This document shows, in pieces, positions 17,493 through 20,406 of a DNA stretch of 20,406 bases. The stretch comes from Candidatus Hodarchaeaceae archaeon (GTDB taxonomy: Archaea; Hadarchaeota; Hadarchaeia; Hadarchaeales; Hadarchaeaceae), in the NCBI GenBank assembly GCA_030018135.1, contig JASEGJ010000019.1, forward strand, positions 1 through 20,406, given 5' to 3'. Position numbers and translations under genes: made by a program. Below the pieces are notes generated by a model. The model had not been told where the DNA came from, did no database searches, and was given only the letters and a program-made list of their open reading frames with translations. The number at the start of each line of letters is the position of its first letter. Position 1 is the stretch's first letter.

Positions 17493-17596
17493 GGGCCCGT
17501 AGTCTAGCCTGGACAATGTTCAACATCCGGATAGGACACCAGCCTGCGGTCGTTGGCAGCGAGCTGGCGACCCGGGTTCGAATCCCGGCGGGCCCG
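17493..17596 (+). tRNA. tRNA-Arg(GCG) with two introns (17515-17532 in the D-loop, 20a/21; 17550-17561 at 37/38)
   Basis: Spliced product: GGGCCCG TA GTCT AGCCTGGACA GGAC A CCAGC CTGCGGA GCTGG CGAC CCGGG TTCGAAT CCCGG CGGGCCC G. BHB central helices CUGG/CCGG and CUGC/GCAG with 3-nt bulges. Confidence 0.9.
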
Positions 17597-19321: not shown

Positions 19322-19633
19322 GATGGTACCCAGCCACCATTGAGTTCATGTTAAATAAAATTTTTGATTACTTTCGTTGGGCCCAAGTTACGGCTGAAAA
19401 GATGATGTGCACACAGCGCATGCGCAATGAAAGGCTTTGCAATGGATTTTCCAATTCAAAAGCAGCGGGAATTGGAGGGTCCCGAGTTGGGTCAGGGATG
19501 AGCCACATCCGTTAAAAGAATTCATCGGGACGTTAGCTGATGGCGAGGGAACCCATACCCTACGCACGTAGGCTTCTCGCACCCAAAGAAAACAAAAAGA
19601 CTTAAACGATTCTTTACCCTTTGTCGTAATGGT

Positions 19634-19817
19634 GCGGAGGTAACTCAGCCATTTGGCTCGGCGAAAAGGCCTCCAAACTGAAATGGGAGTTCGGGGTGAA
19701 CCCGACCCAAAAGTGTCGGACCTCGTCGAGAAAAATCGCGAGGGACAAAACTGAAGTTCCCAGCAATGGGACGCGGGCATCCGAATGTCACGGGTTCAAA
19801 TCCCGTCCTCCGCACCA
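19634..19817 (+). tRNA. tRNA-Phe(GAA) with four introns (19651-19683, 19690-19711, 19720-19749, 19757-19778), CCA encoded
   Basis: The spliced 77-nt product is a perfect cloverleaf: GCGGAGG TA ACTC AGCCTGGGA GAGT G TCGGA CTGAAGA TCCGA ATGTC ACGGG TTCAAAT CCCGT CCTCCGC ACCA. Three junctions form BHB motifs and one is relaxed. Confidence 0.88.
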
Positions 19818-19846: not shown

Positions 19847-20406
19847 GGGGTGTGCAAAATTCCTTTGTTTTTGCCGTTGATGACTATTCATGCAAGCGGT
19901 TGAGCTAGCAAGGCTAGTTGTCAACAAGACCATCGTTGAAGAGCGCAGAGGAAGGGGCAGGAAAGGCTACGGCCGCCTTCCGGCGGCGAGGCTTTTAGTC
20001 TACGCGCAGCTGAAGGGCATCCACAAGGACGAGCCGCTCGAGAAGCACTTGAGGAAAAACCGAGGCGTTGCGAAAGCCCTCGGCCTGAAAGGCATTCCCG
20101 ATCGGACGACGATAGGTAGGTGGAGAAGGAGGCTGGAGCCCGTCGTCCGGGAGGCCGTAGAGAAGCTGGCGGGTCTCATCGCGACGCTCGCGCCGACGGA
20201 GCTCCTGGTCGTCGACTCGACGCCGCTCGAGGACCGGAGAGACCCTGAGGCGAGGGTTGGCTTCTACTCGCGAGGACCGTTCAAGGGCTTTAAGGTGCAC
20301 GTTTCGGTGGATCAGCTCGGATTGCCCCGAAAAGCGCTGGTAACGCCCGGAAACAGGCACGATTCGCCCCTTCTGCCAGAGTTGATCTGCGAACAGGAGG
20401 CAAAGG
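19847..20406 (+). mobile_element. DDE insertion sequence (IS5/IS4-like), left part
   Basis: Putative terminal repeat GGGGTGTGCAAAA at about 19847, 43 bp upstream of the transposase; the right end is outside the window. Confidence 0.6.
19890..20406 (+). CDS. DDE transposase (DDE_Tnp_1 type), 3' truncated by the window
   Basis: Not in the ORF track; hand translation MQAVELARL...RGRKGY...LGLKGIPDRTTIGRW...LVVDSTPL..DPEARVG...GFKVHVSVD...VTPGNRHDSPLL. Confidence 0.88.
   Translation, partial: MQAVELARLVVNKTIVEERRGRGRKGYGRLPAARLLVYAQLKGIHKDEPLEKHLRKNRGVAKALGLKGIPDRTTIGRWRRRLEPVVREAVEKLAGLIATLAPTELLVVDSTPLEDRRDPEARVGFYSRGPFKGFKVHVSVDQLGLPRKALVTPGNRHDSPLLPELICEQEAK

Follow-up and report, generated by a model that had tools for sequence, protein, structure and literature searches.

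The stretch of 20,406 nucleotides analysed here, called the window below, belongs to the draft genome of an archaeon and carries on its + strand, at positions 19634-19817, a gene for tRNA-Phe(GAA). We read it as a functional, single-copy gene of the Hadarchaeota that is interrupted by four short bulge-helix-bulge (BHB) introns, and on the strength of sequence comparisons we put the probability of this reading at roughly 0.92. The introns are 33, 22, 30 and 22 nt long and are located at 17/17a, 22/23, 30/31 and 37/38 of the tRNA. The gene had been proposed from the letters of the window alone; all coordinates, exons, bulges and helices of this original prediction are present in the sequence, including the relaxed motif of intron 4, and its core claim, a tRNA-Phe(GAA) with four introns processed at BHB motifs, is backed by gaps in orthologous genes and by covariation in the helices. 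In the following, G000 is the genome of the window, other G-numbers are genomes of relatives and g-numbers are genera.

Structure of the tRNA-Phe gene

After removal of the four introns by script, the remaining 77 nt are called by ARAGORN as tRNA-Phe(GAA) with an encoded CCA. All stems are paired (acceptor 7/7, D 4/4, anticodon 5/5, T 5/5) and the discriminator base is A, as the predicted perfect tRNA-Phe would have it. Removal of the introns restores a canonical cloverleaf, as is typical for BHB introns, and in the window introns 1-3 each show a fully paired central helix (4/4) together with the two 3-nt bulges. The sequence allows only one placement of introns 1, 2 and 4; intron 3 could slide by +1 or +2, AC being repeated there, and is set to 30/31 by the BHB motif. 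The gene is neither split nor permuted, all five exons being collinear within 184 nt, and with lengths of 22-33 nt and no Rfam match in the window the introns do not qualify as group I or group II introns.

The original prediction also expected that standard annotators would miss the gene, and both programs used here do overlook it. ARAGORN reported no tRNA-Phe in the unspliced window, with or without its intron option, and a scan of the window with Rfam at gathering thresholds was empty. When the tRNA model RF00005 was run over the whole genome, a partial match of 16.2 bits was found at 19738-19814, below the cut-off of 29 bits. We also used a search that takes out BHB-like segments in varying combinations and rates what is left by its fit to a cloverleaf. 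Run unguided, this search returned the four predicted introns as its top solution at the locus; with relaxed anchors it produced about 25 spurious tRNAs with similar scores, and because of this high false-positive background its scores are not used as evidence. A guided search, which was given only the intron-less orthologue of G008 and the BHB geometry, recovered the same four introns. The folding energy of the precursor is -75.5 kcal/mol, compared with -57.6 ± 4.2 kcal/mol for shuffled sequences (z = -4.33; 0 of 200 shuffles were as stable), and the minimum-energy fold holds the acceptor stem, the T-arm and the complete BHB motifs of introns 1 and 2.

The exons, the introns and a candidate promoter element are listed in Table 1. 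A TTTAAA- or CTTAAA-like box is present at a similar distance in most of the 30 orthologous upstream regions, and a promoter role for it appears plausible. Two open reading frames (ORFs) are close to the gene. A 130-aa ORF (window 19388-19780, - strand) runs antisense over it; Pfam gave no match to this ORF, which is unlikely to be a gene. A transposase ORF (DUF772, DDE_Tnp_1; window 19890-20405, + strand) starts 73 nt downstream and runs off the end of the contig.

Table 1. Parts of the tRNA-Phe(GAA) gene and its upstream element, in positions of the window. The dot within a bulge follows its second nucleotide.
Feature	Position	Strand	Description
A/T-rich box CTTAAA	19601-19606	+	candidate archaeal TATA element, 28-33 nt upstream of the mature 5' end
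Exon 1	19634-19650	+	tRNA positions 1-17: acceptor 5' strand, 8-9, D-stem 5' strand, start of D-loop
Intron 1	19651-19683	+	33 nt, 17/17a; central helix UCAG/CUGA, bulges CC·A and AA·U, 5-bp inner helix
Exon 2	19684-19689	+	6 nt, TGGGAG, positions 17a-22, including G18 and G19
Intron 2	19690-19711	+	22 nt, 22/23; central helix UGGG/CCCA, bulges AG·U and AA·A, 5-bp inner helix
Exon 3	19712-19719	+	8 nt, AGTGTCGG, positions 23-30
Intron 3	19720-19749	+	30 nt, 30/31 in the anticodon stem; central helix UGUC/GACA, bulges GG·A and AA·A, 6-bp inner helix
Exon 4	19750-19756	+	7 nt, ACTGAAG, positions 31-37, anticodon GAA
Intron 4	19757-19778	+	22 nt, canonical 37/38; relaxed BHB CUGA/GCGG with 3/4 pairs, bulges AG·U and GC·A
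Exon 5	19779-19817	+	positions 38-73 and encoded CCA: anticodon-stem 3' strand, variable loop, T-arm, acceptor 3' strand, discriminator A

Presence and absence of the introns in orthologous genes

Orthologues of the gene were collected by a DNA search of 40 relatives, followed by spliced alignment of the fetched stretches, and 30 genomes of the order, including G000, could be parsed. Ten genomes (G009, G026, G027, G029, G030, G033, G035, G036, G038 and G040), in which the matches were short T-arm stretches or were located at a contig end so that nothing was fetched, are outside the count, as is G021, whose fetched stretch is without a Phe gene; the two Phe copies of G014, both at contig ends, were counted once. 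Nine of the 30 genomes have no intron (G008, G015, G016, G017, G019, G023, G025, G032 and G039), twelve have introns 3 and 4 only, two have introns 1 and 2 only (G002 and G037), one has introns 1, 2 and 3 (G022), and six genomes from four genera have all four (G000, G010, G011, G012, G018 and G024).

The MAFFT alignment shows clean gaps in place of the absent introns, and these gaps fall exactly on the predicted junctions. Exon 1 runs straight into exon 2 in 21 of the 30 orthologues, namely those without intron 1, and the intron-less gene of G016 agrees base for base with the predicted spliced product over its first 46 nt. Intron 4, the one with the relaxed motif, is absent with an exact junction in G022, G002 and G037 and in the nine intron-less genes.

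The central helices are kept in the carriers. All four pairs of intron 1 are present in 9/9 carriers, either as UCAG/CUGA (five) or as UCAA/UUGA (four), a swap from G-C to A-U that couples an exon base of the D-loop with an intron base. For intron 2, seven of the nine carriers have 4/4 pairs and two have 3/4, and the inner helix varies on both strands (UCGGG/CCCGA, UCAGG/CCUGA, CCAGG/CCUGG). The central helix of intron 3 is fully paired in all 19 carriers (UGUC/GACA, UGUC/GGCA or UGCC/GGCA), and five of the six pairs of its inner helix (helix 7) show changes on both sides. Pairing is less complete for intron 4, where 4/4 pairs were found in five, 3/4 in eleven and 2/4 in two of the 18 carriers.

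Taken over the alignment of 30 sequences, 93.8% of the cells are paired versus 85.7% after shuffling, and 17 pairs are changed on both sides versus 10.8 in shuffles; in each case 0 of 500 shuffles reached as high a value. Part of this signal comes from the acceptor and T stems. Pairing falls to 44-57% if the partners are slid by 1-3 columns, a comparison that is biased against the slid versions, since the structure was drawn up from the sequence of the window itself. The pairing of the single intron helices still stands on its own: central and inner helices are paired at 100 and 97.8% for intron 1, 94.4 and 100% for intron 2, and 100 and 81.7% for intron 3.

These observations bear on the possibility that the locus is a pseudogene in decay, the remnant of a tRNA-Phe gene that is out of use and has collected insertions. 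The failure of ARAGORN and of the Rfam tRNA model to recognise the gene, the imperfect motif of intron 4 and the insertion sequence-type transposase ORF that begins so close downstream could all be taken as signs of decay. The locus is, however, the only one for tRNA-Phe in the assembly, its five intact exons yield a perfect cloverleaf, and the upstream A/T box is conserved. The four-intron layout has moreover been kept in six genomes and four genera with compensatory changes in the helices, which is unlike insertions that are not under selection. We consider a pseudogene very unlikely.

An artefact of assembly or binning, in which reads of several strains or organisms were joined into one interrupted gene, might be suspected in a metagenome-type draft genome of 45 contigs, all the more since the gene is located 590 nt from a contig end beside a transposase and natural populations contain several intron variants. 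Against this, the assemblies of G010, G011, G012, G018 and G024 independently hold the four introns, each with its own sequence differences; Logan contigs from two runs of one study span the gene from exon 1 to the start of intron 3 with ~90-95% identity; and the deoxyhypusine synthase gene keeps its flanking position in named Hadarchaeales records. An artefact can hardly account for all this, and we give it next to no weight. DNA contigs from hot-spring metagenomes that are ~90% alike, found in three runs in which they make up small shares, carry introns 1 and 2; they reflect variants of relatives and not expression, and no RNA run was found to contain the locus.

The introns are not distributed independently of each other. 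Introns 1 and 2 always occur together (9/9 carriers), intron 4 accompanies intron 3 in 18 of the 19 carriers of the latter, and the spacing within each of the pairs 1+2 and 3+4 is 6-7 nt. The intron sequences can be recognised as homologous across three families of the order. The pattern differs within genera: g2 contains two genomes with introns 3+4 and one with all four, g8 contains genomes with 3+4, with none and with 1+2+3, and g12 contains both all four and none. The data indicate that the introns are old, order-wide and homologous, and that among close relatives they are present or absent as the blocks 1+2 and 3+4. Old introns with repeated block-wise loss would fit the pattern, as would exchange by recombination; no direction is inferred, no species tree being used.

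A single tRNA-Phe gene in the assembly

Two spliced-alignment scans of the 1,108,398-base assembly were made for further tRNA-Phe genes. With the mature sequence of the gene itself as query, the locus scored 114.8 and the next one 42; with the intron-less Phe gene of G008 the locus scored 96.8, and the next one, at 68.4, is a tRNA-Thr gene. Neither scan found a second tRNA-Phe in this 1.11-Mb, 93%-complete assembly, so that the check for another tRNA-Phe(GAA), which had been suggested together with the original prediction, came out in favour of a single gene.

Two apparent competitors were discarded. What ARAGORN reported as tRNA-Phe(aaa) at G000:C11:108329-108451 is really a tRNA-Pro(TGG) with two introns, both with 4/4 central pairs, and it matches the Pro genes of G008. 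A tRNA-Phe with ten introns at C14:2062-2387 (score 53.5) resulted from over-fitting by the guided aligner with an unsuitable query.

Host and splicing enzymes

The organism evidently belongs to the Hadarchaeota. The tRNA-Phe gene is flanked by a deoxyhypusine synthase gene whose best named relatives are in metagenome genomes of Hadarchaeales/Hadesarchaea, and two Hadarchaeales records (86% and 84% identical) keep the tRNA-Phe divergent from this gene.

The genome encodes both enzymes expected for the processing of BHB introns, the endonuclease EndA and the ligase RtcB. EndA is a single ORF of 179 aa on contig C33 with an N-terminal and a catalytic domain; it matches PF01974 at 122 bits as well as PF02778, and it aligns to residues 6-169 of the homotetrameric enzyme of Methanocaldococcus jannaschii (PDB 1a79). 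No second EndA was found in the genome when PF01974 was searched down to an E-value of 10, so that the only enzyme found is a single alpha subunit and not an (alpha-beta)2 enzyme of the Thermoproteales type. EndA matches were obtained in 38 of 41 genomes; 36 of these 38, including all 23 of high quality, have exactly one of the same size. In genus g9 (G008, G016, G023) an intron-less Phe gene coincides with the most divergent EndA of the family (57-65% identity versus 70-80%), an association in which shared ancestry is not separated from a causal link.

RtcB was detected with PF01139 at 520.8 bits. The match is split at G000 C11:68229-70859 (-) into profile positions 23-50 and 49-426, which are ~1.37 kb apart. 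The reading frame is open over 874 aa and suggests an insertion of ~456 aa, possibly an intein.

Proposed processing of the precursor

We propose that the gene's own A/T-box promoter drives transcription of a precursor of ~184 nt in which the acceptor stem and the T-arm would form. The D-arm and the anticodon arm would be blocked before splicing by four back-to-back intron hairpins that hold their strands: introns 1 and 3 would take up the strands of the D-stem and the anticodon stem in their central helices, so that these two arms could not form as long as the introns are in place. A single EndA would cleave after the second nucleotide of each 3-nt bulge, and RtcB would ligate the exons, with the encoded CCA as the 3' end. 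Introns 1-3, in each of which all four central pairs and a strong inner helix are present, should be recognisable alone. Intron 3 is expected to leave before intron 4, since the outer helix of intron 4 requires the removal of intron 3, and the motifs of introns 1 and 2 would compete for U17a. The three internal exons, 2-4, with their 6-8 nt pair solely with their downstream introns. They would be lost if all sites were cut before ligation, so that cleavage and ligation should be ordered or coupled; cutting and joining would proceed intron by intron or be tightly coupled.

Transcription, the cleavage sites, the order of splicing and ligation are all inferred. Several points weigh against a functional single-copy gene spliced in this way. 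In the unspliced precursor, the outer helix between the exons (h) has 1, 0 and 2 bp for introns 1-3, which puts them into the HBh' class; the strict hBHBh' motif asks for at least 2 bp in h as well as in the inner helix (h'), which has 5, 5 and 6 bp. Introns of the HBh' class need an EndA of broad specificity, according to PMC5829648, and the catalytic domain of the EndA found here aligns without gaps to the alpha4 enzyme of M. jannaschii and does not have the 5-residue loop that ARMAN-2 carries beside the catalytic histidine. Intron 4 has only 3/4 central pairs and an inner hairpin displaced from the central helix by one C; as scored, its h' is 0, and its h, the anticodon stem, arises only after removal of intron 3. 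Since U17a is at once the third nucleotide of the 3' bulge of intron 1 and part of the first pair in the central helix of intron 2, the motifs of these two introns cannot both be complete at the same time. Finally, a second Phe gene could still be located in the missing part of the 93%-complete draft.

Some of these points would also suit a real gene with other processing, in which introns 1-3 are substrates of EndA and intron 4 or the joining of the micro-exons needs more; candidates are a second subunit of the endonuclease that is absent from the assembly, another RNase, or an order enforced by a chaperone or a modification enzyme. The weak central helix of intron 4, which has no adjacent inner helix and gains its outer helix only after intron 3 has gone, fits such a scenario, as does an EndA in which, compared with that of M. 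jannaschii, no specificity loop is inserted, and simultaneous cutting would presumably lose the exons of 6-8 nt. On the other side, a missing second subunit is unlikely because a single EndA-sized match is the rule in the relatives (36/38), and relaxed motifs at 37/38 were, reportedly by Marck and Grosjean in 2003, found to be common in archaea. Other processing is improbable in our view, though it deserves more attention than a pseudogene or an artefact, and processing by EndA and RtcB as proposed above is preferred.

Other interrupted tRNA genes in the genome

The tRNA-Phe gene is not the only heavily interrupted tRNA gene of G000. Rfam gives 47 tRNA matches, nearly all of 72-88 nt, in G008, a member of the same family, and 45 in G016, compared with 28 in G000; intron load differs sharply within one family. 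With the compact genes of G008 as guides and with searches of our own, a procedure that is ad hoc and partly hand-curated, we placed 41 tRNA genes with about 54 introns in G000. Ten of the genes have no intron, 17 have one and nine have two; three introns were found in tRNA-Gln(CTG), tRNA-Gln(TTG) and tRNA-Tyr, four in tRNA-Phe and six in the initiator tRNA-Met. The third Tyr intron and tRNA-Asn are the least sure of these parses, and a five-intron parse of tRNA-Cys proposed by the guided aligner was dropped for one with two introns. The guided scan of G000 did not find tRNAs for His, Val(TAC), Ala(TGC), Pro(CGG) and Leu(CAA); they may be in the missing 7% of the genome or disrupted beyond the reach of the method.

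The only initiator tRNA-Met gene of the genome (G000:C41:5367-5599, + strand) parses with six BHB introns of 18, 27, 20, 36, 30 and 26 nt at 4/5, 15/16, 30/31, 37/38, 45/46 and 59/60. Four of the six have 4/4 central pairs, and the exons are down to 4, 7 and 8 nt in length. The spliced product is called by ARAGORN as tRNA-Met(CAT) and has A1-U72 and three G-C pairs at the base of the anticodon stem, features which we take to mark initiator tRNAs. In 16 relatives the gene has 3-5 introns, as we read them from an unguided alignment, and each of the six positions is occupied in some genomes and empty in others; the position of the D-arm intron differs among relatives, and the copy of G008 has none. 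The initiator tRNA is less fully checked than tRNA-Phe, and for its first intron there are two candidate 5' exons, both of which lead to one and the same product. Our literature search did not find a report of six introns in one tRNA gene.

Further observations concern single genes. A tRNA-Arg(GCG) in the window (17493-17595, + strand) carries an 18-nt intron at ~22/23 (17515-17532) and a 12-nt intron in the anticodon loop (17550-17561); it scored 47.2 bits in the whole-genome Rfam search and was missed by ARAGORN and by the Rfam gathering scan of the window. The 60-nt anticodon-loop intron of tRNA-Trp (G000 C42:21929-22091, - strand) contains TGATGA and CTGA boxes and, we assume, resembles the box C/D guide RNA of other archaeal tRNA-Trp introns; the T-arm of this gene holds a further intron of 30 nt. 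Among the parsed tRNAs of G000, most non-canonical introns end in AA (often CAA or CAAA) before the 3' splice site, and they cluster at ~22-24, 30-32 and 59/60.

The tRNA-Gln(TTG) gene with its three introns is intact at G000 C1:16573-16703. A second apparent tRNA-Gln(TTG), at C1:19028-19198, was rejected; only its 3' part is tRNA-like, it is located beside an integrase gene, and the real gene is the one at C1:16573-16703. An intron-less copy of the 3' part of the gene is present at ~19150-19198 of C1, ~2.5 kb downstream, where it overlaps the start of a 296-aa tyrosine-integrase ORF (C1 18332-19222, - strand), and an ORF with a HEPN domain is located between the gene and the copy. The region C1:16573-19222 looks like a small integrated element whose attachment copy is without the T-loop intron.

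Implications and comparison with known systems

An essential single-copy tRNA gene with four introns, and a second gene apparently with six, are found in a genome whose only EndA looks like the strict homotetramer type. Reviews and the paper of the annotation program give a limit of three introns and link heavy disruption to endonucleases with special loops or two subunits. There is an even chance, in our estimate, that this is a family of Hadarchaeota whose tRNA genes are more fragmented than any in the literature searched and are served by a single homotetramer-type EndA without specificity loops. If so, a broad repertoire of introns would be handled without any need for loop insertions or a heteromeric architecture, and micro-exons would be saved from loss by a pathway in which cutting and joining are coupled or strictly ordered. 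Questions are opened as to what EndA needs in its substrate, how exons of 6 nt are retained, and in which order neighbouring introns are removed. The pattern of the blocks 1+2 and 3+4 differs even within genera and offers natural material for studying the gain and loss of tRNA introns. There is also a practical side: an annotation based on ARAGORN or the Rfam tRNA model only would show neither tRNA-Phe nor initiator tRNA at these loci, which could be misread as incompleteness or as odd decoding.

As to the number of introns, the original prediction held that four might exceed the known maximum. This stands for the printed maximum, which is three per tRNA gene in a 2014 review (PMC4033280) and up to three in the tRNAscan-SE 2.0 paper (PMC8450103); it does not stand against a preprint of October 2026 (10.64898/2026.10.13.758758), which claims that a single tRNA gene of Asgard archaea can have up to five intervening sequences. 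Four introns are more than the printed maximum, yet fewer than the highest number claimed and fewer than in the initiator tRNA of the same genome. The preprint was the only report of archaeal tRNA genes with at least four introns in our literature search, which covered the texts of papers; Supplementary Data 4 of PMC11291895 and the tables of the preprint may contain further genes with four or five introns.

The closest parallel is found in the Thermoproteales (Thermofilum, Pyrobaculum, Caldivirga), in which genes likewise have several short BHB introns at canonical and non-canonical sites and related introns recur at preferred positions. Pyrobaculum calidifontis has 71 introns in 46 genes (PMC8450103), compared with ~54 in 41 here, the latter being a rough count. 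Unlike G000, with four introns in tRNA-Phe and by parse six in the initiator tRNA, the Thermoproteales have a printed maximum of three per gene; they belong to the Thermoproteota and not to the Hadarchaeota, and according to PMC5829648 their EndA is an (alpha-beta)2 enzyme with a Crenarchaea-specific loop, in contrast to the single alpha subunit found here.

The Asgard archaea of the preprint resemble G000 in that most tRNA genes are interrupted, with many introns in the D-arm, in that standard annotators miss introns, in the up to five intervening sequences per gene, and in the patchy gain and loss among close relatives. They differ in phylum and have genomes that are several-fold larger, and two EndA paralogues, fitting an (alpha-beta)2 enzyme, were described for 44 of 60 genomes, whereas there is one here. 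The main text of the preprint has no mention of Hadarchaeota.

Within the phylum, Kaneta et al. 2018 (PMC5829648) tied an alpha4-type EndA of Hadesarchaea to increased tRNA disruption. In the part of the paper available, their Hadesarchaea genome YNP_N21 comes without a number of introns per gene and without a four-intron gene; its EndA is assigned an 'L3' loop whose position that text does not state, and in the EndA of G000 we see no insertion compared with that of M. jannaschii.

A eukaryotic parallel is found in the nuclear tRNA genes of the red alga Cyanidioschyzon merolae (PMC3728597). They contain up to three BHB-type introns each, located in the D-arm, in the T-loop and at 37/38, and some of them are unlike ours in being also permuted. 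Reverse transcription PCR showed there that the outer introns leave before the 37/38 intron, the same order as inferred here for introns 3 and 4. BHB introns, non-canonical positions and tRNA genes with several introns are well known already; what is new is a count above the textbook limit, in a phylum where this had only been hinted at, and with an EndA of a type not expected to cope with it.

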